A stretch of DNA of 19,561 nt. Origin: Candidatus Methylomirabilota bacterium (GTDB lineage Bacteria > Methylomirabilota > Methylomirabilia > Rokubacteriales > CSP1-6). The translations under genes and the position numbers were made by a program. Under the pieces are notes generated by a model. The model worked only from the letters and a program-made list of their open reading frames with translations. It searched no databases and was not told the DNA's origin. Within the stretch, counting starts at the first letter, position 1. Each line of letters starts with the position of its first letter. The stretch spans positions 1-19,561 of the forward strand of contig DASYTM010000060.1 in assembly GCA_036002345.1 (NCBI GenBank), written 5' to 3'. Positions 2 through 14,790 of this stretch are shown here, piece after piece.

Positions 2-226
2 GACGCGGAGCTCTTCGAGATCCTGCGCGCGCTGCGGAGGAGGGTGGCCGAAGAGCGCGGCGTGCCGCCCTACCTGATCTTCTCCGATGCGTCCCTGCGC
101 GACATGGCACGCCTGCGCCCGCGCACGCTGGACGAGTTCCGCGAGGTGAAGGGCGTCGGCGACTGGAAGCTCGAGACGTTCGGCGACCGCTTCCTGACCG
201 CGGTGCGCCAGGCGGTCGCGGGCTAA
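2..226 (+). CDS. recQ: RecQ-family DNA helicase, C-terminal HRDC domain (partial; 5' end lies outside the window)
   Basis: The frame is open from the window edge. The translation DAELFEILRALRRRVAEERGVPPYLIFSDASLRDMARLRPRTLDEFREVKGVGDWKLETFGDRFL matches the HRDC pattern (VPPYxIFSDxxLxxMA ... GVGxxKxxxFG). TAA stop at 224-226. Confidence 0.8.
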   Translation, partial: DAELFEILRALRRRVAEERGVPPYLIFSDASLRDMARLRPRTLDEFREVKGVGDWKLETFGDRFLTAVRQAVAG

Positions 227-1101
227 CGGCCCTCGTCGGCCGCGCCGAGAGCGACGCCGCCGAGGATCAGCACGACCGCGACGAGCAGGGACGGGCTCGG
301 CCACTCGCCCAGCCACAGCGTGGCGACCACCACGCTGACGAGGGGCGTCGCGAGCAGGCCGAGCGAGACCGTGACGGCGGGCAGGCGCTGGCCGGCCATC
401 GCGCTGGCCCAGTACGCGAGCGCCGTCCCCGGGATTCCCGCGTAGGCGAGGAGCGCCACGAGCGTGGGCGTCGGCTCGAACACGAGCGGTCCCGCCCCGA
501 GGTAGGCGAGCGGCACCGTGATCAGGGCCGCCAGCAACATCTCCCACGGCAAGAGATCCAGCGGCGCGGACTGCCAGGCGTGACCACGGATGTGCAGGAT
601 CGCGCCCGCCCACAGGAACGCGCCGGCGAGGATCGCGACGTTGCCCCAGACCGCGCGCGGCTCCGACCAATCGAAGCCGGCGGGATTGAAGAGCACGACG
701 ACGCCGGCGAGGCCGACCGCGACGCCGAGCACGCGGCGCGCGGTGAGGCGCTCGCCGAGGAGGAGCCACGCCCCCGGCGTGACCCAGAGCGGCGTGGTGT
801 AGGCGAGCACCGCCGAGCGGCCGGCGGGAACCAGCGCGAGCCCGATGCTGGTGAGCACGGTGAAGCCGACCATGTGGAGCAGCGTGATCGTGAGCATCAC
901 GGGCAGGTCGGCGCGCGGCGGCAGGACGAGGCGCCCGCGCAGGATCGCCAGCGCGAAGAGCGCGCCGCAGCCGATCACGGTGCGCACCGCCACCGCCCAT
1001 ACCGGGGACATGGCGGCCACGATGACCTTGTTGATGGGCCAGGTGAGGCCCCACGCGAAGACGACCGTGACGAGGAGCGCGACGCCGGCGCGCCGCGACA
1101 C
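223..1101 (-). CDS. EamA/DMT-family permease (drug/metabolite transporter), 292 aa
   Basis: This is the C-terminal 292 aa of the 789-aa track ORF. It is highly hydrophobic with two EamA-like halves (GVALLVTVVFAWGLTWPINK..., ...GIPGTALAYWASAMAGQRLPAVTVSLGLLATPLVSVVVATLWLGE). I place the start at GTG 1101-1099, 11 nt after the MFS stop (TGA 1115-1113). Upstream of that point the ORF becomes Arg/Ala/Pro read-through in a different frame from the MFS gene. Confidence 0.85.
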   Translation of the reverse strand: MSRRAGVALLVTVVFAWGLTWPINKVIVAAMSPVWAVAVRTVIGCGALFALAILRGRLVLPPRADLPVMLTITLLHMVGFTVLTSIGLALVPAGRSAVLAYTTPLWVTPGAWLLLGERLTARRVLGVAVGLAGVVVLFNPAGFDWSEPRAVWGNVAILAGAFLWAGAILHIRGHAWQSAPLDLLPWEMLLAALITVPLAYLGAGPLVFEPTPTLVALLAYAGIPGTALAYWASAMAGQRLPAVTVSLGLLATPLVSVVVATLWLGEWPSPSLLVAVVLILGGVALGAADEGR

Positions 1102-1112
1102 GACGGACGGCG

Positions 1113-2408
1113 TCAGGACGCCCAGGGGCTCGGCTGGGCCGCGCGCGCGGCGAGCGCCTCGCGCTCGAGCCAGCTCACGGCCAGCGGCACGACGAGCAGG
1201 ACGGCGCCGACCGCGTTCAGCGCGCCGAAGCCCCACGCGCCGAGCACCACGCCGCCGAGCGCGCTGCCGACCGCGCCCATGAGGCCCATGACGAGGTCGG
1301 CGAGGCCCTGGATCGACGCGCGCTCTTCGGGTGAGAGCGCGTCGGTGAGGAGCGCGCTGGCGGAGACGAACGCCAGGTTCCAGCCGATGCCGTTGAGGCA
1401 GAGCCCGGCGAGCACGAGCCCGCTCGCGCTGCCCGGAGGCAGCCCGGCCAGCCCCAGCGCCAGCAGCAGCACGAGGCCGCCGGCGCCGATGATGGGCAGC
1501 CGGCCGAAGCGGTCGCAGAGCCAGCCCGAGAGCGGCGAGGTGATGTACATGCCGCCCAGGTGGAACGAGACGGCGAGGCCGATCGTCTGCACGCCGTGCC
1601 CGTGGTCGTGGAGGTAGAGCGGCGAGGTGGACGTGGTGCCGATCATCACGAGCTGGCTCACCATCAGCGTGCCGTAGGCCACGAACACGCGCGGCTCGCG
1701 CAGGATCGCGCCGAGCGCGCGGGCGGGACGGGCGGCGCCGCGCGCGGCGGCGGGCGCCTCGAGCTGGCGCGCGATCGCGAGCGGATCGGGCCGCAGGAGC
1801 GCCTGCACGAGCACGGCGGCGAGGGCGAACGCGGCGAGCGAGATCAGGAACGCGCTCGCCACGCTTCCCAGCCCGAGGGCCGCGCCCGCGCTGACGGCGG
1901 GCGTCATGAGCATGGGCCCGACGATGGAGCCGGCCGCCGAGCCCCAGACGATCAACCCCATCGCCCGGCCGCGCTGCGCGCCGGGGCTGATGTCGGCCGC
2001 CGCGTAGCGCGCGAGCAGGTTCGACGTCTGCGCGGTGCCGAAGAGGGCCATGCCCACGAGGAAGAGCAGGAAGCTCTTCTGGACCACGCCGAGCATCGCG
2101 AGCCCGGCGCCGGCGACGGCGAGCGCGTAGCCGACCGTGAGGCCGGGACGGCGCCCGAAACGCGCCATGAGCCGGGAGAGCGGATAGGCCGCCAGGGCCG
2201 TGCCGAGCGAGCCGATCCCGACGGGCACCCCGGACCACGTGTTGGTGCCGGTGATGGCGGCGGCCATGATGGCGCCGACGGCCATGGTCATGGAGAACCC
2301 GGTGCTGCCGCAGACCTGGGCCGCGAAGAGCGTCACCATGAGCGCGCCGCGCCGGCGCAGCGCGGCGCCGGCGGGCGAGGGGAGCGAAGTCACGCCGACA
2401 TAGTACAC
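1113..2408 (-). CDS. MFS transporter, 431 aa
   Basis: About 12 hydrophobic segments. An MFS loop 2-3 type motif is present (PLSRLMARFGRRPG; compare the D/G-R-x-G-R-R signature). GTG start at 2408 lies 12 nt after the upstream stop. Alternative starts are GTG 2393 and ATG 2339. Confidence 0.85.
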   Translation of the reverse strand: MYYVGVTSLPSPAGAALRRRGALMVTLFAAQVCGSTGFSMTMAVGAIMAAAITGTNTWSGVPVGIGSLGTALAAYPLSRLMARFGRRPGLTVGYALAVAGAGLAMLGVVQKSFLLFLVGMALFGTAQTSNLLARYAAADISPGAQRGRAMGLIVWGSAAGSIVGPMLMTPAVSAGAALGLGSVASAFLISLAAFALAAVLVQALLRPDPLAIARQLEAPAAARGAARPARALGAILREPRVFVAYGTLMVSQLVMIGTTSTSPLYLHDHGHGVQTIGLAVSFHLGGMYITSPLSGWLCDRFGRLPIIGAGGLVLLLALGLAGLPPGSASGLVLAGLCLNGIGWNLAFVSASALLTDALSPEERASIQGLADLVMGLMGAVGSALGGVVLGAWGFGALNAVGAVLLVVPLAVSWLEREALAARAAQPSPWAS

Positions 2409-2420: not shown

Positions 2421-3380
2421 CTACAGCGAGCGCGTGAGCCGCAGGAGATCGACGACACCGCGGATCGAGAGGGGCCGGGCGGCGAGATACTCGCGCTCGC
2501 ATAGGTCCGGGCCCCACTTGAGCTTGTAGCGGGCCTGGCTCGTGGCGGGATAGATCATGCTGCCGTGCCGTCCGAGCTGACGGATCAGCCACGCGGCGAG
2601 GCGGCTCGCGCCCGGTGGCTCGTCGCCGCCGACGATGAACGGCGTGAATCCGAAGTGCAGGAAGGGTGTGCCGTCGGCGCGCATGCGCTCGATGGCGTGG
2701 GCGTTCGTGAGCTCGATGGCGCCCGCGGGAGCGTCGGGCCGGCGCCGCGTGAGGTCGTGGAGGTAGCCCGGGGTCGTTCCCCAGACGGGGACGTACGTGA
2801 TGAATGCGACGGGGTGACCCCCGCCATCCAGCGCTGCGAACACGCGCCGCTGCGCGTCCTCGGGATGGCCCAGCTCCCCGACCATGAAGTCGAGCTCGTG
2901 ATGGCGCTTGGCCTCGAGCCAGCGCGCGCTGACGCCCGCCAGCGCGGCGAAGCTCCGTTCGTCACGCGGGACGTCGCGGCCCAGCTCGACGACGCGCAGG
3001 CCGGCGCGTCGCGCACGGCTGATCTTGTTGCGGAGCTGCATCTTGTCGCCGCCGCCCAGGCTGAAGCGCTCGAGGCCGAGCCCGAAGCTCGTGCCGAGCG
3101 CGTTCACGCGGAAGCCGCGCCCGCGAAACAGCTCCACCTGCGGCTCGCGGACCTGCACGGCGATGGCGCCGCGGCCGCGCGCGGTGGCGTGCGCCACGAA
3201 GTGATCCAGGAGCGGGCCGCGCGCCGCGGGCGGAGCGTGCACGCCGCCGAAGGCGACGAGGTGCCGGCCCTGCTCGCGGTAGGCGATGAAGCCCGGCGTT
3301 CCGTCGAGGGTGAGGCGGGCGTTGCGCGACGAAAGGGCGAGGAATCCCGACGGATGATCGACGAGCGCCGCGGCGTCCAC
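2421..3380 (-). CDS. Stand-alone DUF2156 / phosphatidylglycerol-lysyltransferase C-terminal-like domain protein (aminoacyl-tRNA-dependent transferase family, MprF-C / VlmA-like), 319 aa
   Basis: The sequence follows the DUF2156 pattern: FIAYREQGRHLVAFGG..., ERFSLGGGDKMQLRNKISRARRAGLRVVEL, HELDFMVGEL, VAFITYVPVWG..GYLHDLTRRRPDAPAGAIELTNAHAIERMRADGTPFLHFGFTPF. No N-terminal flippase or TM domain is present. The start is GTG 3380-3378, 2 nt after the upstream TAG (3385-3383). The 64 aa before it in the track ORF are Arg-rich read-through. Confidence 0.8.
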   Translation of the reverse strand: MDAAALVDHPSGFLALSSRNARLTLDGTPGFIAYREQGRHLVAFGGVHAPPAARGPLLDHFVAHATARGRGAIAVQVREPQVELFRGRGFRVNALGTSFGLGLERFSLGGGDKMQLRNKISRARRAGLRVVELGRDVPRDERSFAALAGVSARWLEAKRHHELDFMVGELGHPEDAQRRVFAALDGGGHPVAFITYVPVWGTTPGYLHDLTRRRPDAPAGAIELTNAHAIERMRADGTPFLHFGFTPFIVGGDEPPGASRLAAWLIRQLGRHGSMIYPATSQARYKLKWGPDLCEREYLAARPLSIRGVVDLLRLTRSL

Positions 3381-3382
3381 GG

Positions 3383-4711
3383 CTAGCCCAGACGGTCCAG
3401 GAGCGCCATGCCGCGCACCGTGGCCTGAAATCCGAGCCAGCGCAGCGGCTCCAGGGGCAGGAGCGGCGGATCGTCGCGAAACCAGGGCAGATCCTCGGGA
3501 ACGGCGCCGTCGCACAGGATGGACGCGATCCACGCGCCGGAAGCGACCGACAGCGCGACGCCGTGCCCGCACCAGCCGACCGCGTGCAGCACGGACGGAC
3601 GGCCGCGCAGCCGCTGGATCGCCGGGAGGCCGTCGAGCACGTAGTCGATCACGCCCGTCCAGCCGCCGGCCACCGGCGGCGCGACGGCGCCGAACGTCCG
3701 CCGGAGCTCGCCGGCGAGCGCGTCGAGGGCGGCGGCGCCGCGGCCGTCGTCCTCGGCGCCGCCGCCCCAGCGATATCGGGGCGCGCCCCCGCCGAAGACG
3801 ATGCGGTCGTCGGCGGTGAGGCGCGCGTAGCTGAAGATCCGGCGCGCGTCGAGCAGCGCCTCGCGACCCTTCCAGCCGAGCGCGTCGCGCGCGCCGTGGT
3901 CGAGCGGCGCCGTCACGAGCACCTGGAGATGCACGGGCAGGACGCGGCCGTGAAGGAGGCCGAGCCCCGGTGTATAGGCGGACGTCGCGACCACCACGTC
4001 GTCGGCGATCACGACGCGTTCACCATCGACGTCGAGGCGAACGGGCCGTCGATCTCCCAGGGCCCTGACGCGGCAGCCTTCGGCGATCGTGCCGCCGCGC
4101 GCGCTCACGCGCTCGGCAAGGCCGGCGACCAGCCGCATCGGGTGAAGCGTGCCCGCGGACGGGAGCCTGATGGCGGCGGGGCCGGCGCCGTCGTAGCGAC
4201 GCGCGCCGGGAAGACGAATCAGGCGCTCGAGCGCGTCGTCGTCGAGCATCTCCACGCCGAGGCCGAGGCGGGCATGGAGCGCGGCGAGGGCGGCGAGGCG
4301 GGCTCGGCTGGCGCGCTGTTCGCCCGCCACCGTGAGCTGGCCCGTCATCTCGAGATCGCAGGCAATCCGCTCGGCGGCCACGAGCGTCACGACGTCCTCG
4401 ACGGCACGGGTGGTGGCGAGATAGAGCGCCTTCGCGCGCGCGGGGCCGTGCCGGCGGACGAGCGCGCCGAGGGCCTGGCCGACTCCGGGACTCAGGATGC
4501 CCGTCGTGCGGCCCGAGGCGCCGGCGCCGAGGCGCCCGGCCTCGAGCACGAGCACGCGCGCGCCGGGGCGCCGCTCGAGGACGTGATAGGCGGCCGACAA
4601 CCCCGCGAAGCCGCCGCCGATCACGGCCACATCCGCGCGCGTCGTTCCCGCTGGCAGCGTCGGAAACGCGCGCCCGGCGCCGTCGGCCCACATCGGCGCG
4701 GTCGTGTTCAC
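3383..4711 (-). CDS. FAD-dependent oxidoreductase, DAO (glycine/D-amino-acid oxidase-like) family, 442 aa
   Basis: N-terminal Rossmann dinucleotide motif DVAVIGGGFAGLSAAYHVLER..VLVLEAGRLGAGASGRTTG. The C-terminal part (HAVGWCGHGVALSVASGAWIA) is typical of the DAO family. GTG start 4711-4709 overlaps the upstream TGA (4710-4708) as GTGA. ATG 4693 is an alternative start. Confidence 0.8.
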   Translation of the reverse strand: MNTTAPMWADGAGRAFPTLPAGTTRADVAVIGGGFAGLSAAYHVLERRPGARVLVLEAGRLGAGASGRTTGILSPGVGQALGALVRRHGPARAKALYLATTRAVEDVVTLVAAERIACDLEMTGQLTVAGEQRASRARLAALAALHARLGLGVEMLDDDALERLIRLPGARRYDGAGPAAIRLPSAGTLHPMRLVAGLAERVSARGGTIAEGCRVRALGDRRPVRLDVDGERVVIADDVVVATSAYTPGLGLLHGRVLPVHLQVLVTAPLDHGARDALGWKGREALLDARRIFSYARLTADDRIVFGGGAPRYRWGGGAEDDGRGAAALDALAGELRRTFGAVAPPVAGGWTGVIDYVLDGLPAIQRLRGRPSVLHAVGWCGHGVALSVASGAWIASILCDGAVPEDLPWFRDDPPLLPLEPLRWLGFQATVRGMALLDRLG

Positions 4712-5745
4712 GCCGCGGCTCGGGCGAGCGCCTGGGCGACCGCGGGCGATCGTCCCACGCGCCAGATGCGCCCGTCGACGAGGTAGTGATGAAACGCCAC
4801 GCCCCAGCCGAGGCCGATCAGGACGTTGCGCGTCAGCGTGGAGGGCGCGCTGGCGGCCCCGAGCACGCGCGCGCCGTACCACACGAGACCGAGGGCCAGG
4901 CCGAGGGCGAGATAGCGCGCCAGGCTGCCCGACGGTACGCGGCCGTGGCCGCGCTCGTAGTGCCACACGATCCGGTGGTACTGCAGATTGTGAAAGATCG
5001 TGAGGGTGGCGAGGATGGCCAGCAGGTCGTCGAGCGCCGCGAACACGACCGCGTGGAATCCGATCACGAGCGCGAGCAGGAGGTGCCGCTGGGCGAGGCG
5101 GCGCGGCTCGACGCGGCCGGAGAGGACGGTGACGAGCAGCGCCGTCATCGCCACGACGAAGCCCGCGTCGAGCGCGAGCCGCGCCAAGGGAATCAGCGCG
5201 GGCGGCGTCAGGCGAGGCAGCCCCGTGGCCGCGTAGCCGTCGGAGAGCGAGAAGCGGACGTACGGATAGAGGCAGCCGAGCCAGAGCAGCGCCGTGTCGA
5301 GCCGGGCGCCGTTCGCGTCGGCGGCGCCTTCGCGCCGCCGGTAGAGCCTCAGGAAGCCGTAGTGCTGGCGCACGAGATGCCAGTAGGCCCAGAGGTAGGC
5401 GAGCAGGAGGAACCAGGCGAACAGCCCGCCGGGCTCGGCGAGGCCGGCGTCGAGCAGCGCCACGGCGGGGCCGATCCCGAAGACCGCCCACGACCAGCGC
5501 CCGGGAAGCGCCGCGCGCGACGCGGCGTCGGGCGCCAGGTAGCTTCGCGCGTACGTGCCCCACACGTGCGTGCCGTCGAAGAGCACCCCCCACAGGAACA
5601 CCGCGAGCACGACGGCGGACGGCGGCGCCGTCACGAAGAAGGCGCACAGCGCGAGCCCGGCCACGACCCCGCCCTGAAGCCAGACCAGATCGTCGCGCCG
5701 CGAGATGATCCAGGGCCCCGACGCCGAGAGCACGCCCGCGCTCAT
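4708..5745 (-). CDS. Polytopic integral membrane protein with four conserved-looking histidine motifs (candidate membrane metallo/redox enzyme), 345 aa
   Basis: About 8 hydrophobic segments. His clusters: FDGTHVWGT, YWHLVRQHYG, FHNLQYHRIVWHYERGH, FHHYLVDGRIW. ATG 5745-5743 overlaps the upstream TGA (5744-5742) as ATGA. I do not recognise the family. The motifs do not match the canonical desaturase/AlkB HxxxH/HxxHH boxes. Confidence 0.7.
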   Translation of the reverse strand: MSAGVLSASGPWIISRRDDLVWLQGGVVAGLALCAFFVTAPPSAVVLAVFLWGVLFDGTHVWGTYARSYLAPDAASRAALPGRWSWAVFGIGPAVALLDAGLAEPGGLFAWFLLLAYLWAYWHLVRQHYGFLRLYRRREGAADANGARLDTALLWLGCLYPYVRFSLSDGYAATGLPRLTPPALIPLARLALDAGFVVAMTALLVTVLSGRVEPRRLAQRHLLLALVIGFHAVVFAALDDLLAILATLTIFHNLQYHRIVWHYERGHGRVPSGSLARYLALGLALGLVWYGARVLGAASAPSTLTRNVLIGLGWGVAFHHYLVDGRIWRVGRSPAVAQALARAAA

Positions 5746-6941
5746 GCCGGGCTCGTGGCGAAGCGGGACCACACCATGCGCTGGGCGACCCGCCCGAGCG
5801 AGGAGTTCGCCAGCCCGAAGACACCGCGGTGCAGCACGTCGGCGCCGGGGCCGCCGAGGGCGAAGCCGCAGCTCATCCAGTGCGACCAGCGGATGACGCC
5901 CGCGTTGATCGGCCTCCGCTCCCGCTCGTAGGCGTCGAGCGACCGGTCGACGTCCGTCGGGCCGGCGCCGCTCGCGAGCACGGGACCGAGGTGGCGCGCG
6001 AGCGCGGCGGCGTCCTCGATGGCCATGGTCATGCCCTGGGCCATCACGGGATTGATGACGTGGATCGCGTCGCCCAGCAGCACCGCGCCGCGCGCCGCGT
6101 AGCGCGGCGCGTGGCCGCGCCAGAGCTTGTAGAGGTGGACGCCGACGGGCGAGGCCCGGCGGCCCTCGAGCAGCGGCGAGCGATGGACGATGCGCGCGAG
6201 CTTGTCCGCCGGCGACCCGGAGCGGAAGAGCCGCTCGGCGCGCGCGTGGACGAGCGCGGCCAGCCCCAGGCGGTTCACGCCGGGGACGACGAGGATGCCG
6301 CCGTCCGGATGCAGCTCGGTGCGCAGCACGTCGGGATGTCCCGGTGGCCGATCGATGTCGACGATGAAGAGCGCGTGATCGTACGGCACGCGGGGCAGCT
6401 CGATGCCGAGGGCTCCGCGCACCTTGGACGCCGCGCCGTCGGCCCCCACGACGAGCCGGGCGCGAATCTCCTCCTCACCGCCGCGCGGCGTATCGAGGAC
6501 GACGCCGGTCACGCGGCCGCCGTCCTCGACGATGCGCGTGACGCGCCGGCCGTAGCGCATCTGCACCCGGCCCGTGGCCGCCGCGGCCTCGACGAAGACG
6601 CGTTCGATCTCGGGATGTGGAAGGACCAGATACGGATCCGTCACCCCCGGCAGCGTGAGCGGGACGTCGAGGAGCAGCCCGGCGCGATGGTGATGGAACT
6701 GCATTCGGGCCACGGTCAAGGCCCCGGCGGCGCGCACCCGGTCGAGCGCGCGCCACTCGGCGAGCAGGCGGGTGACGGGCGGCAGCAGGCTCTCGCCGCG
6801 GTTGATGTTGCCGGGGCCCTGGTGCCGGTCGATGACGAGCACGCGCAGGTCGTGCGCCCGCGCCAGCGCGAGCGCGAAGGCGGCGCCGCCGACGCCCGCC
6901 CCCACCACGATCACGTCGAACGCGGTCGTCGAATCTCGCAT
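5742..6941 (-). CDS. FAD-dependent monooxygenase (group A flavoprotein monooxygenase, UbiH/PHBH-like), 399 aa
   Basis: All three signatures are present: GxGxxG (FDVIVVGAGVGGAAFALALAR), the DG motif (LVVGADGAASKVRGALG) and the GD motif (LLGDAIHVINPVMAQGMTMAIEDAAAL). SD GGAG sits 6 nt upstream of ATG 6941. Confidence 0.85.
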   Translation of the reverse strand: MRDSTTAFDVIVVGAGVGGAAFALALARAHDLRVLVIDRHQGPGNINRGESLLPPVTRLLAEWRALDRVRAAGALTVARMQFHHHRAGLLLDVPLTLPGVTDPYLVLPHPEIERVFVEAAAATGRVQMRYGRRVTRIVEDGGRVTGVVLDTPRGGEEEIRARLVVGADGAASKVRGALGIELPRVPYDHALFIVDIDRPPGHPDVLRTELHPDGGILVVPGVNRLGLAALVHARAERLFRSGSPADKLARIVHRSPLLEGRRASPVGVHLYKLWRGHAPRYAARGAVLLGDAIHVINPVMAQGMTMAIEDAAALARHLGPVLASGAGPTDVDRSLDAYERERRPINAGVIRWSHWMSCGFALGGPGADVLHRGVFGLANSSLGRVAQRMVWSRFATSPA

Positions 6942-6954
6942 GGGCGGCTCCGGC

Positions 6955-7332
6955 TCAGGCCCGCGCCGCGAACGGCGCCGCCGAGGATTTGAACGAGTTG
7001 CCGAGCACGCCGCGGTCGCCCGAGAGGTGGATGGGCACGGCGAGCATCGCCCACTCCACGGCGCCGCACGCCAGCGCCCACAGGGCCACCGCGATCGCGG
7101 CGACGAGGTAGCAGTGCGCGAGGTTGTAGAGGCGGTGATAGGTCGGCGCGATGGGCCCGCCGCGGGCGCGCCGGGAGGCCAGGGCGCCGGGCAGGTAGCC
7201 CACCACGTCGATGAGGACGAAGGCCAGCACGAAGCGCGACCAGGCCACGTCCGGCCAGTGCGCCAGCACCAGTGCGACCAGGACGACGACGGCGCCGGCG
7301 TGCTCGGCGCGTGTCCAGCGCGTGGCGTCCAT
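6955..7332 (-). CDS. DUF4260-like small membrane protein, 125 aa
   Basis: Four hydrophobic segments. Motifs resemble DUF4260 as I remember it (FVLIDVVGYLPG, YNLAHCY, IHLSGDRGVLGNSFK versus H-x-G-x-DR-x-x-G-x-x-x-K). ATG 7332 lies 1 nt after the upstream TGA (7336-7334). Confidence 0.6.
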   Translation of the reverse strand: MDATRWTRAEHAGAVVVLVALVLAHWPDVAWSRFVLAFVLIDVVGYLPGALASRRARGGPIAPTYHRLYNLAHCYLVAAIAVALWALACGAVEWAMLAVPIHLSGDRGVLGNSFKSSAAPFAARA

Positions 7333-7333
7333 C

Positions 7334-8191
7334 TCAGTCGAGCCCCGCGCGCGCGATGAGCCGCGCGTGCTCACGCCGGATGCTGGCCTCGATGGCGGCC
7401 ACCTGGTCCTCGTAGGGCGTCTCGGCGATGAGCCGGCCCGGCGCGAGCTCCGCGCCCGCGAAGAGGGTGGGATGGAGCCGCGCGACGGCGTCGAAGAGTC
7501 CCACGAACTCCCGGATGTAGACGCTGAAGATCTCGCCCATCGCCCGCTCCGCGTCGCGACAGAGGGTCGCGACCTTTGCGCGCCGGCCGGGATCCTCGGC
7601 GAGGAGGCGGCGCACCAGGTCGGCGCCGAAGGCCACGTGGCGCGTCTCGTCGGTGAACGCGGCCCGGACGAGCCGCGCCAGGTAGGGATCGAGCGGCGCC
7701 CAGTACCGCTCTTCGTACGCGTAGAGGGGATGGGCCATGCCTTCCAGCACGAGATTCATCAGGACCATGCCCTCGATGAACGAGCCTCCGTCAGCCACCT
7801 CGTAGCAGCGGTCGATGAAGCTCCGGAGCGGAGGGATCAGGATCGGGGCCGTCGCGGCGGCGTCGTCGAGGCCGGCGGCGGCGCTGGCCGCGATGAGCCG
7901 CCGGCGGAACATCTCGTGATGCCGCGCCTCGTCCAGTGTCTGCTGGGCCGCGAAGTTCAGCGCCTCGAGCGTGGGCGCCAGGCGCGTGAGCGCGGCCGAG
8001 ACCCGCAGCGACGCGTCCTCGAAGACGACGAAGAGGGCGAGGTCGAGGCGGTGCACCTCGGCCAGCGGCGCCGAGGTCGCCACCACATCCGGCAGACCGT
8101 CTCCGAGACGGTCCAGATCCCGGCGCTCACGTGTCCACTGCCCCGCCGCGACGGTGTCAACCCAGCGTGAGATCGAAAAGTCGATCGGCAT
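7334..8191 (-). CDS. Ferritin-like di-iron carboxylate protein (four-helix-bundle oxygenase/oxidase type), 285 aa
   Basis: Ligand pattern E / ExxH / E / ExxH: FVVFEDASL, LDEARHHEMF, LVLEGMAHPLY, FTDETRHVAFG. A strong SD precedes the start (GGAGGGAGAG then ATG 8191). The upstream ATG 8206 in the track lies inside that SD. Confidence 0.8.
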   Translation of the reverse strand: MPIDFSISRWVDTVAAGQWTRERRDLDRLGDGLPDVVATSAPLAEVHRLDLALFVVFEDASLRVSAALTRLAPTLEALNFAAQQTLDEARHHEMFRRRLIAASAAAGLDDAAATAPILIPPLRSFIDRCYEVADGGSFIEGMVLMNLVLEGMAHPLYAYEERYWAPLDPYLARLVRAAFTDETRHVAFGADLVRRLLAEDPGRRAKVATLCRDAERAMGEIFSVYIREFVGLFDAVARLHPTLFAGAELAPGRLIAETPYEDQVAAIEASIRREHARLIARAGLD

Positions 8192-10628
8192 GATCTCTCC
8201 CTCCATGTCGGGACGGGACGGGAGCGCCGCGCGAGTCCGTGGGCGCGGGCGGCGCGAGGCGAAAGCCGTGCCGAGTGGCGAGCGCCATGAGGCGATCGAC
8301 GTCCCCGACGGGCACGTTGTCGCCGACGCCCCAGTCGCGCGGGTCGTGTTCGAGCGTCAGGAGGATCGTCTCCGCCAGGCAGGCGAGCTGCACGCCGTCG
8401 GGCAGGTGGCGGAGGTTGGACGGCCCGAAGCGGACGCGAGGGTCCGGCAGGGCGACGTGGCCGCCGTCGATGACCGTGAGGTCGGGCCGCCCCCGAAGAC
8501 GCGCCGAGGCGTCGGGGGGCTGGGCGACGTCGCAGACGAGCGTTCCCGGCGTGAGCGGCGCGTCGTCGAGGACGGCGCGCGCGGCGGCCGTGGCCGTGAT
8601 GACGACGTCGCAGTCCGCGAGCGCGGAGAGGCCGGTCGTGACGGCGACGCGGTTGCCGTCCCGCGCGAGCTCGCGGCGCAGGTGCTCGAGCCCGGCCACT
8701 CCCGTGGCAGGATTGCCGACGAGCACGAGCCCGCGCGGCCGCTCGCGCGCGATCAAGCGCGCGCAGAGGGCGCCGACCGAGCCCCGCGCGCCCACGATCG
8801 CCACGCGCGCGTCGCCGAGGGCCAGGCACAGCGCGCGGCCCGTCCGGATCGTCGCGGCGACGGCCATGCCGGCCGTGAGGGTATTGCCGGTCGTGATGGC
8901 CGGGCCTCGGCCCACGACAGCAAGGCCGCGGCGGCTGTAGGGCGCGGTGTAGCCGCCGAGGCCGACGCGGCGTACGCCGAGACGCGCGGCGAGATCGACG
9001 GCGTGCGCGATCTCTTCGCTCATGCGCCGCAGGCCCCGCCGCGCCATCTGCTCGGGGAGGAGCGGCAGCGCGATCACGATGCCGTCCGCGACGGCGCCCG
9101 TCCGCGAGCGGATGGTCGGGGCGGCCATCACCACGCCGGCGGGCAGCGCGGACGTGAAGGCGCACAAGCGCCGTCGCTCCACGGCGGTCAGGGTGGCCAG
9201 GCCGGGATCGGCGGCCGCCACGTCGTCGGGCTCGGTGAGGTGCACGAGGAACGCGTACGCGGGCCGCGGCTCGTTCGCGCTTCGCGCGGGCGGCAGCCCG
9301 GCCGGGCGCGACGCGTCGTCGGGGGCGACGGAGGGGCCCTCGTCGAGGGCGCCGATGCCGCGCACGATCGTCTCGACCGCGTTGGCTTCGAGACGCCGGC
9401 AGACGTCGCCGAGGCGCGCCACGGCGAGATCGAGCTCGTCGTCGGAGACCACGAGCGGCGGCGTCACGCGGAGGACGTGCGCGTCGCCCAGCGCGGGCAG
9501 GACGAGCACCGAGGCAGTCTCCGCCAGCGTCGCGGCGACGGCATAGGCGTGGAGTCCCTGGTGATCGAGGAACGAGAGCACGCCCCCGGCGCCTCGATCG
9601 GGGCCGCGGAGCTCGATGGCGGTCAGCAGGCCCACCCCGCGCACGGCGGCGATGGTGTCGGGGTAGCGCCGGGCGAGGTCGGCGAGGCCGGCCTGCAGGC
9701 GCGCGCCCTTTCGCGCGGCGGCCTCGGCGAGGCCGCCGGCCGTGAGCGCCTCGAGGACGGCGAGTCCCACGCGGCAGGCGACGTTGTTGTTGGCGAACGT
9801 CGAGGAGTGGCGCAGCGCGAAGGTGTCGTCCCACACGGCGGCGGAGGCGAGGCAGGCGCCGAGCGGAAAGAGCCCGCCACCGAGGGCCTTGGCCACCAGA
9901 AGCACGTCGGGCGCGACGCCCTCGTGCTCGCAGGCGAAGAGTCGCCCCGTTCGCCCGAGGCCCGTCTGGATCTCGTCGACGACGAGCGGGACGCCGTAGC
10001 GCGAGCACAGCTCGCGCGCGCGCCGTAGATAGCCGGCCGGCGGCAGGTGGACGCCCCGCTCGCCCTGCACGGGCTCCACGAAGAATGCGGCGATGCGATC
10101 ACCGTCCCGGGCAAGGCGGCCGGCCAGCGCCGCGGCATCGCCGAACGGGACGCGCTCGAAGCCGCCGGGCAGCGGGCCGAAGCCGGCCGCGTGATGGGGC
10201 TGTCCGGTGGCGGCGAGTGCGCCGAGGGTCTTGCCATGGAAGGAGCCATCGGCGGAGAGGATGATGGGACGGCCCGTGCGCGCGCGCACGAGCTTGATGG
10301 CGGCTTCGATCGCCTCCGCGCCCGACGTGGTGAACACGCAGTGCGTGAGCCGGCCCGGGGCCACTCGGGCGAGCGCGTCCGCCAGCGCCTCGGCGTGGGG
10401 GGCGCGATAGGGCTGCACCATGGCCGGCTCGCCGGCCGCGAGGGCCGCCTGGGCCGCGCGGGTCACGCACGGCGCGTTGTGGCCGAGGGCGACGGCGCCG
10501 TACTGCGCGTAGCAGTCGAGGAAGCGCCGCCCGTGCGCATCGGTCAGCCAGACGCCGTCGCCGTGGACCCACGTGCGGTTCATGCCGAGGAGCCCGAGGA
10601 GCCGGCCGAGCGTCGGATTGAGGGTCAT
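8157..10628 (-). CDS. Bifunctional fusion of a class-III PLP aminotransferase (aa 1 to about 425) and a long-chain acyl-ACP reductase (AAR)-like NAD(P)H domain (aa about 457-790), 823 aa
   Basis: N-terminal half: FTTSGAEAIEAAIKLVR, FFVEPVQGERG, VVDEIQTGLGRTG, and a PLP lysine in LLVAKALGGG. C-terminal half aligns block by block with cyanobacterial AAR as I remember it. The blocks (this protein / AAR) are YAFLVHLTEP / FGLIGHLTS, GLGGYTAP / ALGGFTSI, ITTGNTLTAG / FTTGNTHTAY, VAIVGARGSVGALCARL / VAVVGATGDIGSAVCRWL, LACLAETILLTLEH / MFACFAEAMLLEFEG (catalytic Cys retained), and ALATRHGF / ASVRHGF. ATG 10628-10626 overlaps the upstream TGA as ATGA. Confidence 0.85.
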   Translation of the reverse strand: MTLNPTLGRLLGLLGMNRTWVHGDGVWLTDAHGRRFLDCYAQYGAVALGHNAPCVTRAAQAALAAGEPAMVQPYRAPHAEALADALARVAPGRLTHCVFTTSGAEAIEAAIKLVRARTGRPIILSADGSFHGKTLGALAATGQPHHAAGFGPLPGGFERVPFGDAAALAGRLARDGDRIAAFFVEPVQGERGVHLPPAGYLRRARELCSRYGVPLVVDEIQTGLGRTGRLFACEHEGVAPDVLLVAKALGGGLFPLGACLASAAVWDDTFALRHSSTFANNNVACRVGLAVLEALTAGGLAEAAARKGARLQAGLADLARRYPDTIAAVRGVGLLTAIELRGPDRGAGGVLSFLDHQGLHAYAVAATLAETASVLVLPALGDAHVLRVTPPLVVSDDELDLAVARLGDVCRRLEANAVETIVRGIGALDEGPSVAPDDASRPAGLPPARSANEPRPAYAFLVHLTEPDDVAAADPGLATLTAVERRRLCAFTSALPAGVVMAAPTIRSRTGAVADGIVIALPLLPEQMARRGLRRMSEEIAHAVDLAARLGVRRVGLGGYTAPYSRRGLAVVGRGPAITTGNTLTAGMAVAATIRTGRALCLALGDARVAIVGARGSVGALCARLIARERPRGLVLVGNPATGVAGLEHLRRELARDGNRVAVTTGLSALADCDVVITATAAARAVLDDAPLTPGTLVCDVAQPPDASARLRGRPDLTVIDGGHVALPDPRVRFGPSNLRHLPDGVQLACLAETILLTLEHDPRDWGVGDNVPVGDVDRLMALATRHGFRLAPPAPTDSRGAPVPSRHGGRDHADRLFDLTLG

Positions 10629-11374
10629 GCGTGACAGGCCTCGTGGATCCTCACGAACATGTCGCGAATCTCGCCGCTGTTCGCGGCGAGGCGGTCGGGC
10701 GTCCAGCCCCGCGTCGAAATCGCCGGCTGCACGTGGACGCGGACGGTGCCGGGCAGGGCGTTGAAGCCCCGGCCGGGATCGATGTCGCGCGGAATCTCGA
10801 TGTAGAGGGGGACGATGGGCGCGCCGAGGCTTGCGGCGAGCTGAAAGTTGTCCGCGTTGAACGGCCCGAGCCGTCCCGTGGTCACGCGCTCGCCCTCGGG
10901 GCTCAGATAGATGGAATCTCCGGTCCGCCGGAGCAGGCCCTCGGTCGCGCCGAACCACCGCGCACGCTCCGCCGGCTTCGAGGGTGGCGGCGCCCAGCGC
11001 GTTCCCATCAGCGTCGTGAAGATGCCGAGGGGCGCCATCCACCGGAGGAATCCGTCGAGATCCTGGGCGCCGACGAAGCGCGTCCTGGGCAGGCCGAGGG
11101 CGACGAGGACGAACATGTCCAGCGTCGAGCTGTGATTGGAGACGTAGACCGTCTGCGTCTCGGCGAAGGGCTCCGTCTGGTACACCTCGAGCCGCACGCC
11201 CCACATCCGGAGCACCGCGCGGCTGAGCCGCCCGGCGATGACCTCGCTGTAGAGCCGCCGCGCGGTGAACGACGTCACGACCGCGACGGCGAGCAGGAGG
11301 ACCGCGGAGATGGTCAGGAGCGCCAGCGTGGCCGCGGCCAGGAGCACCGCGCGGATGGCCCGTCCGTTCTTCAT
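10625..11374 (-). CDS. PlsC/LPLAT-family acyltransferase (1-acyl-sn-glycerol-3-phosphate acyltransferase-like), 249 aa
   Basis: N-terminal TM anchor. Acyltransferase motif I is NHSSTLD (HX4D), motif III is YLSPEGERVTTG (PEGTR-like), and motif IV-like is APIVPLYI. No SD precedes ATG 11374. GTG 11347 is an alternative start. Confidence 0.85.
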   Translation of the reverse strand: MKNGRAIRAVLLAAATLALLTISAVLLLAVAVVTSFTARRLYSEVIAGRLSRAVLRMWGVRLEVYQTEPFAETQTVYVSNHSSTLDMFVLVALGLPRTRFVGAQDLDGFLRWMAPLGIFTTLMGTRWAPPPSKPAERARWFGATEGLLRRTGDSIYLSPEGERVTTGRLGPFNADNFQLAASLGAPIVPLYIEIPRDIDPGRGFNALPGTVRVHVQPAISTRGWTPDRLAANSGEIRDMFVRIHEACHA

Positions 11375-11388
11375 GGCGTTCGCGTAAT

Positions 11389-11404
11389 GGCAGGAGGCGT
11401 GCCA
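11389..11404 (-). promoter_or_regulatory. Candidate sigma-54 (-24/-12) promoter for the acyltransferase operon
   Basis: The minus strand reads TGGCACGCCTCCTGCC, with GG-N10-GC spacing matching the consensus TGGCACG-N4-TTGCW. It is the only intergenic TGGCAC with correct spacing that I found. It lies next to a divergent sigma-54 activator gene. Caveat: the predicted TSS is only about 4-6 nt from ATG 11374. Confidence 0.45.
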
Positions 11405-11458
11405 GAGGCGGGAGTGACGCCGTGACGGCTACTTGCGACCGGCGGCGCGGCGGGCCTC

Positions 11459-11496
11459 GCCCCTGGCTGAGCATCGGATGCCAGGGGCCGTACGTT
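11459..11496. promoter_or_regulatory. Conserved palindromic box, copy A (putative activator/operator site or RNA hairpin)
   Basis: The plus strand reads gCCCCTGGCTGAGCATCGGATGCCAGGGGCcgtacgtt. It forms a perfect 9-bp stem GCCCCTGGC / GCCAGGGGC (11459-11467 / 11480-11488) around a 12-nt loop. Positions 11461-11496 match 13185-13220 at 28 of 36 positions by my hand alignment. Confidence 0.55.
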
Positions 11497-13077
11497 TTAT
11501 GCCGTGACGAGGGCCTCGCTGAATCTGCGATACGCCTCGAGCGGGTCGCCGAACTTCTGATGCCCGGCCGTGTGGTGCGCGCACGCCAGCAAGAGCGTGT
11601 CGCGGTCGTGGGCGGTGCTCGTGGCCCAGTCCTCGACGAGGCCGAGGCCGATCTCCTGGTTGTGCGGATCGTTGCCTTCCTTGACGGCGGCCAGCGCCAG
11701 CGTCGCGGCGAGCGGCGCGCGATCGTGGCCCGCCTCGAGGTAGGCGCGGACCCACGCCACGCTCTCGTTCGGCGTGAGCGCCGTCTGCGCTTCGTCGAGC
11801 CGCTCCAGCAGCGCGCCCTGCGTCAGCCCGCGCGCCGTCGCGGGCGGCCGCGTGTCGGCCTCGCCGTTGCCGGGCGTGTGGCGCGTCCAGTGCGCAGTCT
11901 GGTTGATGAACGAGCCGGCCACGTAGAGCAGCTTGAGCCGGTGCGGGTGTGTGAACGTGTCGTAGAACCACTTCAGCGTGTTCGTGTACTCGAAACCGTG
12001 GTGGGGCATGGAGAAGTTCGCCGGGCTGCCGACCTCCAGCATCACCCGCGCCGCCGCGACCTGGATCACGTCGAGGATCCGGCGCGGATCCTTGCCGGCG
12101 AGCAGCAGCGCGGTGATCTCGTGGATGTAGGCGGGCTCGGGCTCGTCGAGGACCGCCCGCGTGAGACGGTCGGCTTCCGCCGGCATCAGCGGCGCCGAGT
12201 TGGCGAGCAGGCGCTGCTCCACGAGCCTCGACGGCGAGGGCTCCATCGACGACTTCGGCTTGGCGTCGTCCTCCGCGAGGTGCATCCAGCTCACCTGGCA
12301 GGCCATCTCGTACGCGGAGTGCCAGCGCGGGCCCACCGCCATGTCGAGGGCGCCCGCGTAGAGCACGTGGTGGGCGTCGCGCCAGCCCAGCGCGTCTCCG
12401 ATCTCGATCGTCGCGCGCGCGCGGTGCGCCTTGTGCCCGGTGGTGTAGGAGCGGTTGTAGAGCATGCGGTCCTGCACGTCGATGAGGCCCGCGAAGGCGA
12501 GATGCGACAGGAGCTCACGCCGGCGGTCGGGCTCCTGGAACATCCCGAGGAACACGCGGTAGGCCTCGAGCACCTGACCGCGCTGGACCAGCGTCAGCCA
12601 GTGGTCGAGACGCTCCTCGAACGGACCCTCGAGCGTGACCGGCTCCTGGTCCGGCCAGTGCCGCTCGGGAGGCGCGATCGGCTTGTTCGGATCGCGCTTC
12701 TGACCACGCCCGCCGTAGTGGCCGGGCATCTTGCCGAGGAGCTGGTTCCACGGGTCGAGCCCCGTGGGCACGTACCAGATGGTCTGCGCGAGGGCCAGGT
12801 ACTCGAGGGCCGGCGGCAGGAGCTTGGGGAAGCGCAGGCTCGTCCGCGCGCTGAGCAGGCAGTGGTCGTTGTTGACGAAGCGCACGAAGGCGTTGTCGAT
12901 CCGCTGGTGATACGGCACGTGCGTGTACGGCGCGTGCACGCGGACCGTCTCGCGCACGATCTCCGCCCGCGGGCGCCCGGCGCGCACGAGATCGTAATAG
13001 ACGGTGCTCGCTCCGATCTGATCACGCGCGAGGATCCGCTCTTCGAGCTTGCCGTAGAGGCCGCCTGCCTGGTCCAT
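11497..13077 (-). CDS. Conserved-looking hypothetical protein, 526 aa, soluble, family not recognised
   Basis: Long ORF with balanced, non-shadow composition (W, Y, H, K, N, F present). Good SD (GGAGCGGAAGC then ATG 13077) and a TAA stop. The complementary 590-aa plus-strand ORF is Arg/Gly/Val-rich shadow. Confidence 0.7.
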   Translation of the reverse strand: MDQAGGLYGKLEERILARDQIGASTVYYDLVRAGRPRAEIVRETVRVHAPYTHVPYHQRIDNAFVRFVNNDHCLLSARTSLRFPKLLPPALEYLALAQTIWYVPTGLDPWNQLLGKMPGHYGGRGQKRDPNKPIAPPERHWPDQEPVTLEGPFEERLDHWLTLVQRGQVLEAYRVFLGMFQEPDRRRELLSHLAFAGLIDVQDRMLYNRSYTTGHKAHRARATIEIGDALGWRDAHHVLYAGALDMAVGPRWHSAYEMACQVSWMHLAEDDAKPKSSMEPSPSRLVEQRLLANSAPLMPAEADRLTRAVLDEPEPAYIHEITALLLAGKDPRRILDVIQVAAARVMLEVGSPANFSMPHHGFEYTNTLKWFYDTFTHPHRLKLLYVAGSFINQTAHWTRHTPGNGEADTRPPATARGLTQGALLERLDEAQTALTPNESVAWVRAYLEAGHDRAPLAATLALAAVKEGNDPHNQEIGLGLVEDWATSTAHDRDTLLLACAHHTAGHQKFGDPLEAYRRFSEALVTA

Positions 13078-13220: not shown

Positions 13221-13230
13221 CGTCGCCGCC

Positions 13231-14790
13231 ATGGCGCTTTTCAGCGAGGCCGAGGCGAGCGTCGCCCGGGCTGTCTCGGGACTCGTCTACGGCAACCCGT
13301 TCGTGCCGGAGCGGATGGCGTACGAGCGCGCCGTCCTCGGATCGGACTTCGTCGCGGCCTATCCCGTGTGGCACGCGCCGGCAAGCCGATCCCAGAATCC
13401 CAACCTGCCTGCGCTCCACGCCCGCGTGGAGCAGCTGGCGGACGACGTCCTCAAGCGGCTCCTGTACGGCCCGGACCGCGCCCGCGCGGAGGCCGCGGAC
13501 CTGGCGCTCTACGAGGATCTGGTCCTCTACCTCGTGTTCTATCGCTACTTCGACGACTTCTACGTCCCCATCGGCGATCCGGCCGCGCGCGGGCGTCGCC
13601 TGGAGTGGTTCGAGCGCTTCCTCGCCGACCTCGAGCATTACCTCGCCGTGCCGCGCGGGCCCAGCGACTGGCTCGCCGCCGCGCCCCACCTGTTCGCGAT
13701 CTTCTTCCAGGTCCGTCGCGCGTTTCATTTCATCTACCGCAACATCGCCGGCGTCTCCATGCCCGCCGCCCGGCTGCGCGCCGCGGTGTGGCAGTCGGTC
13801 TTCACCCGGGACGTGAAGCGCTACTCTCGCGTGTTCTACGACCGCATGGGCGACATCACCACGCTCGTCACGGGGCCGTCGGGCACCGGCAAGGAGCTGG
13901 TGGCGAGCGCCATCGGGCTGAGCCGCTATCTTCCGTTCGACGCCAGGACGCGCCGTTTCGAGGAGGATTTCGCGGAGGGCTTCTACGCGCTGAACCTGTC
14001 GGCGCTGTCGCCGACGCTCATCGAGTCCGAGCTGTTCGGGCACCGCCGCGGCGCCTTCACCGGCGCGCAGCACGATCGGGCGGGGTGGCTGGAAGTCTGT
14101 CCCCCGCGCGGAACGGTGTTCCTCGACGAGATCGGCGAGGTGGACCTCGCGATCCAGGTCAAGCTCCTGCGGGTCATCCAGACGCGGACGTTCCAGCGGC
14201 TCGGGGACTCCCGCGACCGCAGCTTCCGGGGCAAGGTCGTGGCCGCGACCAACCGCGACCTCACGCGCGACATGAAGGCCGGCCGCTTCCGCGAGGATCT
14301 CTACTACCGACTCTGCGCGGACCAGGTCACGACGCCGTCCCTGCGCGAGCGGTTGCGGGATTCACCGGACGAGCTGGGCATCCTCCTGCGCTTCGTGGCC
14401 GAGCGCGTGAGCGGCGCGGACGAGGCGGAAACGCTGGCCGCGGAGGTCGCGCGGTGGATCGACGCCCACGTGCCGGCCGACTACGCGTGGCCGGGCAACG
14501 TCCGCGAGCTGGAGCAGTGCGTCCGCAACATCATGATTCGCGGGGAGTACCAGCCGTCCGCCGACTCCCGGGGCGTGCCGCGTGAGCGGCTCGCCGAGGA
14601 ATTCCTCGACGGCTCCTGCACGGCCGACGAGCTGCTCCGGCGCTACTGCACGCTCGTCTACGAGCAGACCGACAGCTATCAGGAAACCGCGCGCCGTCTC
14701 GAGCTCGACCGTCGCACGGTGCGCGACAAGATCGACGACGCGCTGCTGCGCGAGCTGCGCGGGGAGAAGAGCGCCCGCGACGATCCGTGA
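13231..14790 (+). CDS. Sigma-54-dependent transcriptional activator (bacterial enhancer-binding protein) with an unrecognised N-terminal domain, 519 aa
   Basis: AAA+ core: Walker A GPSGTGKE, GAFTGA loop (HRRGAFTGA), Walker B VFLDEIGE, ATNRDL..FREDLYYRL, WPGNVRELEQ. C-terminal Fis-type HTH: SYQETARRLELDRRTVRDKI. The first ~200 aa show no receiver, PAS or GAF signature that I can see. Confidence 0.9.
   Translation: MALFSEAEASVARAVSGLVYGNPFVPERMAYERAVLGSDFVAAYPVWHAPASRSQNPNLPALHARVEQLADDVLKRLLYGPDRARAEAADLALYEDLVLYLVFYRYFDDFYVPIGDPAARGRRLEWFERFLADLEHYLAVPRGPSDWLAAAPHLFAIFFQVRRAFHFIYRNIAGVSMPAARLRAAVWQSVFTRDVKRYSRVFYDRMGDITTLVTGPSGTGKELVASAIGLSRYLPFDARTRRFEEDFAEGFYALNLSALSPTLIESELFGHRRGAFTGAQHDRAGWLEVCPPRGTVFLDEIGEVDLAIQVKLLRVIQTRTFQRLGDSRDRSFRGKVVAATNRDLTRDMKAGRFREDLYYRLCADQVTTPSLRERLRDSPDELGILLRFVAERVSGADEAETLAAEVARWIDAHVPADYAWPGNVRELEQCVRNIMIRGEYQPSADSRGVPRERLAEEFLDGSCTADELLRRYCTLVYEQTDSYQETARRLELDRRTVRDKIDDALLRELRGEKSARDDP

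Follow-up and report, generated by a model that had tools for sequence, protein, structure and literature searches.

The TA-TR gene and its product

We analysed a window of 19,561 nucleotides from a Candidatus Methylomirabilota bacterium (assembly GCA_036002345.1, contig DASYTM010000060.1, positions 1 to 19,561; G+C 74%). On its minus strand, at 8157..10628, the window carries a gene whose 823-residue product joins a class-III aminotransferase to a thioester reductase with the fold of acyl-ACP reductase (AAR; ACP, acyl carrier protein). We refer to this gene as TA-TR, for transaminase and thioester reductase, and examine it together with the operon in which it lies. Translation, domain searches and homologues mark the product as a TamH/PigE-type acyl-thioester reductase and omega-transaminase, an assignment that we consider highly probable, with the activity predicted by homology.

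The reverse complement of 10628..8157 reads as an open frame of 823 amino acids closed by a stop codon, in agreement with the coordinates and the single frame given in a preliminary description of this DNA. The plus-strand reading of 8157-10628 was rejected because a stop codon breaks its translation. At 10628, the initiating ATG and the TGA of the PlsC-like gene upstream overlap (ATGA). A mechanically called open reading frame (ORF) continues the TA-TR frame up to 11474 (8157..11474, minus strand, 1105 aa) and places 282 open codons before the true start. We reject this extension as an artefact of high G+C, since the phase of the G+C content at third codon positions (GC3) switches at about 10620, the PlsC-like gene occupies another frame upstream, and the homologues, in an alignment of family members, start at the equivalent of M1-T-L-N-P of TA-TR.

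The class-III aminotransferase domain covers residues 21-408 (9405..10568, minus strand; Pfam PF00202, Aminotran_3, E 4e-92) and includes the codon of the lysine K247 (9888-9890), which is expected to bind pyridoxal phosphate (PLP). It is followed by an interdomain linker at about residues 425-456 (9261..9356, minus strand), recognised by its composition and by low pLDDT (predicted local distance difference test) at the start of the structural model. The reductase domain occupies approximately residues 457-795 (8244..9260, minus strand), as defined by NCBIfam, PDB sequence matches, AlphaFold2 and Foldseek, and contains a GxxGxxG loop (8772-8792) and the predicted catalytic Cys750 (codon 8379-8381). 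The motifs quoted in the preliminary description were each found at the residue given there: DEIQTGLGRTG at 218-228, VAKALGGG at 245-252 (with K247), GARGSVG at 613-619 and LACLAET at 748-754 (with C750). The linker that it had called Pro/Ala-rich is indeed so, proline and alanine making up 44% of residues 430-456, and this region is weakly conserved in the homologue alignment. Among 24 family members of 54-83% identity, K247, D218/E219/Q221/T222, C750/E753/T754 and G613/G616/G619 are invariant.

The best NCBIfam model for the whole protein is PigE (NF053554, 534.5 bits), with which the protein aligns in two stretches of swapped order: the N-terminal 340 residues of TA-TR correspond to PigE positions 387-730 and the C-terminal half to positions 49-339 (151.6 bits, E 3e-44). 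Thus, the two proteins share the same two domains in reverse order. The score lies under the equivalog cutoff of 850, indicating that TA-TR is not a PigE orthologue. Among solved structures, the closest relatives of the aminotransferase half are PigE (4ppm) and putrescine aminotransferase (4uox).

For the C-terminal half, Pfam returned two sub-threshold matches, Shikimate_DH (22.1 bits, cutoff 24.3) and Semialdhyde_dh. The second NCBIfam family is AAR (TIGR04058), aligned over positions 38-335 of 339 with 69.8 bits (E 2.5e-19). Searches against the PDB gave PigE 4ppm (E 1.9e-27) and AAR 6jzq/6jzy (E 1.8e-16), and the nucleotide loop GxxGxxG and the cysteine of the xACxAE block line up with both 4ppm and 6jzq. 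An AlphaFold2 model of residues 434-823, built with 60 homologues, reached a pLDDT of 90.2 and a predicted TM (template modelling) score of 0.88; residues 434-444 are of low pLDDT and disordered, as expected of a linker. The top Foldseek match of this model is AAR 6jzy (E 4e-22, TM 0.84 on the target), followed by the AAR-like terminal amidation domain (TAD) of carmabin (E about 1e-17, TM about 0.7). Shikimate dehydrogenase AroE (E 8e-6, TM 0.35-0.45) and glutamyl-tRNA reductase (GluTR; E 1.5e-5, TM 0.27) rank far behind. We therefore rejected both as identities of this half, on the profile scores (HemA 22.6 and Shikimate_DH 22.1 bits against 69.8 for AAR) and on the fold search, which agrees with them. 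The AAR-like reductase of the preliminary description is upheld by both kinds of evidence, and the domain scan and structure prediction that it had proposed recovered the aminotransferase, the linker and the AAR fold.

Reality and spread of the fusion

We asked whether the fusion could be an artefact in which two genes have been joined by a frameshift or a misassembly. Nothing was found in favour of this possibility, its sole oddity being that the mechanically called frame stays open upstream of the start. In the databases, over 120 independent full-length homologues from many samples are about 800-850 aa long and span 96-98% of the TA-TR query at 54-83% identity; the linker and both domains share one GC3 phase, and the same architecture occurs in complete genomes. 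The frameshift or assembly error that the preliminary description had allowed for is thus contradicted by each of these lines, and we assign it a practically negligible probability.

Full-length fusions of lower identity (30-44%) were found, among the matches listed, in cultured Rhodococcus, Pseudomonas, Streptomyces, Tumebacillus, Metabacillus, Haematobacter and Undibacterium and in many metagenome-assembled genomes (MAGs). An exhaustive search by HMMER with the reductase domain alone returned 2,355 cluster representatives (E up to 1e-3), and about 39 of the best 150 of these, as read from the table, are proteins of 780-1,400 aa with the reductase domain at the C-terminus. Eight such long proteins were sampled and all eight carry an N-terminal Aminotran_3 domain; one adds a C-terminal AMP-binding domain. 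The architecture with the transaminase first and the reductase second is common across phyla. We also observed a triple fusion of 1406 aa, consisting of the transaminase, the reductase and an AMP-binding adenylation domain (P0220), and an AAR-like reductase fused to a GAF domain (P0176).

Comparison with characterised enzymes

The nearest characterised counterpart in domain order is PtTamH of the tambjamine YP1 pathway of Pseudoalteromonas tunicata (Richardson et al. 2022), in which an N-terminal class-III transaminase is connected by a linker of about 50 residues to a C-terminal AAR-like reductase with GxxGxxG and a catalytic cysteine (PMC9594044). In vitro, PtTamH converts C12-acyl-ACP, loaded on TamA, to the aldehyde and on to dodecylamine with NADH and L-Glu, and it refuses acyl-CoA (PMC9594044). 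TA-TR shares both domains and their order. The two differ in size and setting: PtTamH has 941 aa, a dedicated ANL-ACP partner (TamA) and a bipyrrole pigment cluster around it, whereas TA-TR has 823 aa and lies among Vlm-like genes.

PigE of the Serratia prodigiosin pathway (MAP branch; Couturier et al. 2021) has an N-terminal domain homologous to AAR, with evidence of thioester reduction before the C-terminal transaminase acts (PMC8341465). Its substrate is a branched keto-thioester of the 3-acetyloctanoyl type, not a plain fatty acyl (PMC8341465). PigE is the top family and PDB match for both halves of TA-TR and shares with it the AAR-like reductase, the class-III transaminase and the logic of reducing first and transaminating second, the reductase of PigE being N-terminal. 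The partners PigB, PigC and PigD were absent from the TA-TR operon in our domain scans.

Cyanobacterial AAR resembles the reductase domain of TA-TR in fold (TM 0.84) and over its full length, with the loop and the xACxAE cysteine aligned, but the identity is about 24% and the 69.8 bits do not reach the TIGR04058 cutoff of 449.7. In addition, the reductase of TA-TR is fused to a transaminase, while cyanobacterial AAR docks to aldehyde-deformylating oxygenase (ADO), which the window lacks. The carmabin TAD (PDB 9e4s and others; bioRxiv 10.1101/2024.10.28.620694), the second-best structural relative, is likewise AAR-like, shows an invariant cysteine adjacent to NAD, takes thioesters bound to a carrier as substrates and is associated with the installation of nitrogen (bioRxiv 10.1101/2024.10.28.620694). 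It differs from TA-TR in being a terminal domain embedded in a non-ribosomal peptide synthetase, without a fused transaminase, and in its proposed product, which is an amide, as opposed to the amine proposed for TA-TR.

These comparisons correct the preliminary description in two respects. It had regarded the domain order as unusual, but PtTamH and all eight sampled long proteins have the transaminase at the N-terminus; and it knew of no characterised fusion of this kind, while PigE (2021) and PtTamH (2022) are both characterised. The chemistry that it proposed, from acyl thioester through aldehyde to primary amine, matches that shown for PtTamH and PigE and is here predicted by homology.

The operon around TA-TR

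The genes of the operon were defined by GC3 phase analysis, Pfam and NCBIfam domain scans and inspection of start codons. They form a minus-strand array in which neighbours overlap or abut, with start and stop codons overlapping along the operon.

Immediately downstream of TA-TR lies a gene for a VlmB-like ferritin-fold di-iron protein of 285 aa (7334..8191, minus strand), identified by its match to PDB 6d9f/8wvr. It overlaps TA-TR by 35 nt; a Shine-Dalgarno sequence, GGAGGGAGA, precedes the start at 8191, and an alternative ATG lies at 8206. The best solved relative of the product is a 'Putative VlmB homolog' (6d9f/8wvr, E 3.4e-26, residues 6-284), with both ExxH motifs aligned, and its matches to R2lox, Phenol_Hydrox and AurF are weak. 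The Pfam family of ADO gave no match to this protein even at E up to 10. With VlmB as its best relative, we rejected its identification as an ADO.

The next gene (6955..7332, minus strand) encodes a VlmO-like small integral membrane protein of 125 aa from an ATG at 7332, tentatively assigned from a weak match to DUF4260, a pattern of putative metal ligands and hydrophobic segments. The DUF4260 match is weak for the window protein (E 0.02-0.03), and 7 of 12 family members match it, with a best E of 9.7e-5; VlmO and Ady6 are themselves reported to be weakly homologous to DUF4260 (PMC9379638). The family shows the motifs ID..GY.PGA, YHHLYN.TH.Y and PIHLSGDR, in which D42, H102 and D106 are invariant and H73 is conserved in at least 90%. 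The metal ligands of VlmO are given as D51/H82/H110/D114 in PMC11705231, which cites Shi et al. 2023. Compared by published residue numbers, the spacing of D42/H73/H102/D106 is 31/29/4, against 31/28/4 in VlmO.

A single-component FAD monooxygenase of the UbiH/FAD_binding_3 type follows (5742..6941, minus strand; Pfam FAD_binding_3, E 5e-41; NCBIfam Ubi-OHases). It is kept in related clusters at 49-77% identity and is our candidate for an amine N-hydroxylase.

The gene at 4708..5745 (minus strand) encodes a His-rich polytopic membrane protein of 345 aa in the NCBI call, or 354 aa from a GTG at 5772, and is recognised by its conservation. The protein has no Pfam or NCBIfam match, and its model found no PDB fold (best E 0.2). 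With 508 homologues, it is a core member of the cluster. H60, H123, H128, H252, H319, H320, D57, E264 and D324 are invariant, as are two HX4H boxes and an HH box, and the AlphaFold2 model is all-helical (pLDDT 87.8). This pattern, which is like that of His-box proteins, leads us to speculate that it may be a membrane metallo-oxidase. The family travels with TA-TR in Vlm-like clusters as well as in a lipid-type locus of Pseudomonas gingeri (L014 13037-14167).

Further downstream lies a DAO-family FAD amine oxidoreductase of 442 aa (3383..4711, minus strand; Pfam DAO, E 3e-57), with NCBIfam matches of the aminophosphonate oxidoreductase and pipecolate oxidase types and a GTG start that overlaps the preceding stop. 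It is followed by a VlmA/AzdA-type aminoacyl-tRNA-dependent transferase of the MprF C-terminal family (2421..3572, minus strand; Pfam LPG_synthase_C, E 3.8e-50). The latter matches MprF and LpiA structures with E 1e-14 to 1e-12 and is kept in related clusters at 54-64% identity; its resemblance to VlmA is a match at the level of the family, to which AzdA is also described as belonging (LPG_synthase_C; bioRxiv 10.1101/2023.10.13.562208). The array ends with an MFS efflux-type transporter (1113..2408, minus strand; Pfam MFS_1, E 9e-36) and an EamA/DMT-family exporter (223..1101, minus strand; Pfam EamA, E 8e-34; NCBIfam 2A78; GC3 phase).

On the upstream side, TA-TR is preceded by a gene for a PlsC/OlsA-like acyltransferase with an N-terminal membrane anchor (10625..11374, minus strand; Pfam Acyltransferase, E 7e-14, and a transmembrane segment), for which NCBIfam gives weak AGP_acyltrn and lyso-ornithine-lipid acyltransferase matches. 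It is translationally coupled to TA-TR; its linkage to TA-TR is confined to the closest relatives (L090, 79%; L099, 31%). Sixteen nucleotides upstream of its ATG there is a tentative sigma-54-like -24/-12 element, TGGCAC-N5-CTGC (11390..11404, minus strand), with one mismatch. The total of such matches across the window is not above chance, and the 5' UTR implied by this element is only about 4 nt. A divergent gene for a sigma-54-dependent activator (13231..14790, plus strand; Pfam Sigma54_activat, E 1e-46), about 1.8 kb from the element, is a possible regulator. Between them, an ORF of 526 aa (11497-13077, minus strand) has a strong coding signal (GC3 0.93) and no Pfam or NCBIfam match, and none of the related loci retrieved encodes a relative.

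Likeness to azoxy pathways and a proposed pathway

The operon context, which the preliminary description had overlooked, points to the use to which the amine is put. In valanimycin and azodyrecin biosynthesis, the azoxy core consists of the A, B and O proteins together with an N-hydroxylase (PMC9379638; bioRxiv 10.1101/2023.10.13.562208), and the fatty amine of azodyrecin is proposed to come from a separate reductase or dehydrogenase and a PLP transaminase (PMC9379638; bioRxiv 10.1101/2023.10.13.562208). The operon in the window resembles the Vlm and Azd clusters in its VlmB-like di-iron protein, its tentatively assigned VlmO-like protein with the D/H/H/D pattern, its MprF-C-type transferase and its enzyme predicted to make an alkylamine from a fatty acyl precursor. 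It differs in the source of the amine, which in the known clusters is provided by Ady2/AzdP with Ady4/AzdQ or by the decarboxylase VlmD and here would come from a single TamH-type fusion. The known clusters are actinobacterial and use the two-component VlmH/VlmR, whereas the monooxygenase candidate of the window is a single-component FAD_binding_3 protein. The core of the window type also extends beyond that of Vlm and Azd by the DAO oxidoreductase and the His-rich membrane protein.

In the pathway that we infer, the activities, the acyl carrier, the chain length, the cofactor, the amino donor, the N-hydroxylase and the product are all proposals set upon the folds, motifs, homologies and gene linkage observed above. 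The C-terminal AAR-fold domain would transfer the acyl moiety of a thioester, most likely acyl-ACP, to Cys750 and reduce it with NAD(P)H to the aldehyde, which the N-terminal transaminase, with PLP on Lys247, would convert to a primary alkylamine. This amine would be N-hydroxylated, with the FAD_binding_3 monooxygenase as the candidate, and then O-aminoacylated by the VlmA-like transferase, with aminoacyl-tRNA as the donor. Rearrangement of the aminoacylated product to a hydrazine would fall to the VlmO-like membrane protein, and oxidation of the hydrazine towards an azo or azoxy group to the VlmB-like di-iron enzyme. The PlsC-like, DAO, His-rich, MFS and EamA proteins may tailor and export the resulting lipophilic product. 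That the fusion supplies an alkylamine to such a valanimycin/azodyrecin-like N-N cascade, in this Methylomirabilota lineage and its close relatives, appears to us somewhat better than an even proposition.

Conservation of the gene context

We defined the close subfamily as the 25 loci whose aminotransferase half is at least 55% identical to that of the window; 15 distinct loci had enough flanking DNA, L002 and L003 being counted once as they encode the same protein. A VlmO-like gene is present in 12 of these 15 informative loci (L001, L002/3, L085-L089, L099, L165 and L168-L170), mostly alongside VlmB-like, VlmA-like, FAD monooxygenase and 354-aa genes and often together with DAO. Four related loci add a DAGK_cat kinase, which we take to be of the VlmJ type.

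Several of these loci carry additional genes. In L001 (12448-12789), L165 (12436-12780) and L168 (12406-12750), a protein of 113-114 aa directly follows TA-TR and is itself followed by an amino-acid permease; in L001 the small protein has a weak match to the SCP2 lipid carrier, and neither gene is found in the window. Genes for a CDP-alcohol phosphatidyltransferase, a protein of the CDP-diglyceride synthase type and radical-SAM/B12 or P450 enzymes adjoin the core in L001 (18917-21279), L003 (17008-17601) and L168 (6883-9874). They hint at a product that may be attached to a head group of the phospholipid type or undergo further tailoring. The fusions of L004, L166 and L167 stand solitary among PSCyt, PSD1 and DUF1501 genes, in a Planctomycete-like setting.

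A distant fusion in the cultured bacterium Pseudomonas gingeri A8002 (L014 5828-19485) is accompanied by an AMP-binding enzyme, a fatty-acid desaturase, a ketosynthase, a protein of the Polyketide_cyc/lipid-transport fold, a MacB-type ABC exporter, a LolA-like protein and a relative of the 354-aa protein. This locus looks like a separate fatty-amine lipid pathway. It lends support to fatty substrates across the wider fusion family and shows that more than one pathway is served by the fusion.

Alternative explanations

A number of observations weigh against the supply of the amine to an N-N cascade. L004, L166 and L167, all on long contigs and with 56-65% identity, carry the fusion without any Vlm-like gene, and the VlmO/VlmA pair was found with none of the 30 distant fusions (30-44% identity, among the matches listed). 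Together, these solitary close relatives and distant fusions indicate that the link between the fusion and the cassette is lineage-specific. Pfam and NCBIfam scans detected no VlmH/VlmR-type two-component N-hydroxylase domains in any gene of the window, so that the essential N-hydroxylation would fall to a non-orthologous candidate. By sequence, the assignment of VlmO is weak, DUF4260 falling below the Pfam cutoff for the window protein. The same scans revealed no ACP, AMP-binding or pigment-pathway domain in any operon gene, whereas TamH needs TamA; TA-TR may draw on the general acyl-ACP or acyl-CoA pool, not on a dedicated carrier. Finally, the PlsC, CDP-alcohol phosphatidyltransferase and MMPL genes of related loci would suit a membrane-lipid role as well.

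Such a role is the substance of one alternative, in which the fatty amine is made for a membrane aminolipid, being N-acylated by the PlsC-like enzyme or N-aminoacylated by the MprF-C-like enzyme, while hydroxylation or desaturation of the chain falls to the di-iron and flavin enzymes. The translational coupling of the PlsC/OlsA-like acyltransferase to TA-TR is in line with this, as are the CDP-OH_P_transf, CTP_transf_1, DAGK_cat, FA_hydroxylase and MMPL genes of related loci and the wide distribution of the cluster in environmental bacteria. AzdA, moreover, can move alanine onto a fatty amine that has not been hydroxylated, yielding an amide as shunt product (bioRxiv 10.1101/2023.10.13.562208). 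However, the PlsC-like gene is confined to the closest relatives, and the most consistently co-conserved part of the cluster is the VlmB-like and VlmO-like pair with its conserved metal ligands, for which hydrazine and azoxy formation is the sole known role (PMC11705231). We consider this alternative unlikely, though worth retaining.

More doubtful still, and in our judgement quite improbable, is a reductase that acts on a non-fatty thioester or ester, either an amino-acid-derived acyl carrier or an aminoacyl-tRNA as in the pairing of GluTR with glutamate-1-semialdehyde aminotransferase (GSAM), to yield a small polar amine or diamine. GluTR is remotely related to the reductase domain, the aminotransferase half resembles putrescine and ornithine aminotransferases, and loci of the cluster contain an aminoacyl-tRNA-using enzyme and amino-acid permeases; PigE, too, acts on a branched keto-thioester (PMC8341465). 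The scores nonetheless separate the families clearly (AAR 69.8 and PigE 151.6 bits against 22.6 for GluTR; TM 0.84 against 0.27), the cluster is rich in membrane proteins and exporters, and the distant fusion of P. gingeri has genes for an acyl-activating enzyme, a fatty-acid desaturase and a ketosynthase as neighbours. An alkane route, in which the aldehyde would pass to the downstream di-iron protein for deformylation as between AAR and ADO, is suggested by the 35-nt overlap of the AAR-fold gene with a ferritin-fold di-iron gene and by the known partnership of AAR and ADO (6jzy). Yet the di-iron protein is nearest to VlmB and unmatched by the ADO family, the aldehyde-consuming transaminase is covalently fused and fully conserved, and alkane synthesis has no use for the VlmA-like and VlmO-like partners; this route is very improbable. 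On balance, a TamH/PigE-type enzyme that supplies its amine to a Vlm/Azd-like cassette is the best explanation of the locus, and we hold it with fair, not strong, confidence.

Significance

The enzyme itself adds little to what is established, since fusions that convert acyl thioesters to amines are already characterised and of biocatalytic interest, and TA-TR is a divergent further member. The main interest of the locus lies in the conserved Vlm-like context outside actinomycetes rather than in the architecture of the fusion. Descriptions of aliphatic azoxy biosynthesis have so far come from actinomycetes; we found no description of a conserved Vlm-like cassette outside them in the literature searched, the coverage of which is incomplete, so that novelty is not proven.

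More tentatively, with a probability slightly short of even, the close fusion subfamily marks a widely distributed N-N-forming lipid pathway in uncultured Gram-negative lineages, in which the VlmA/VlmO/VlmB chemistry of Streptomyces would be put to use again on a fatty amine supplied by the fusion, with a non-orthologous N-hydroxylase and with a new His-rich membrane metalloprotein and the DAO enzyme as additional core members. The lineages concerned are Methylomirabilota, Acidobacteriota, Burkholderiales, Deltaproteobacteria-type MAGs and Thioploca. Such a pathway could yield lipids of a new class that contain hydrazine or azoxy groups. If this is true, the occurrence of a conserved, fusion-headed Vlm-like cassette in several uncultured phyla would take enzymatic N-N bond formation far outside Streptomyces and would give a function to two large 'hypothetical' membrane families, the VlmO-like and the 354-aa His-rich proteins. 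It would suggest, too, that bacteria of soils and sediments contain hydrazine or azoxy lipids that are bioactive or associated with membranes.

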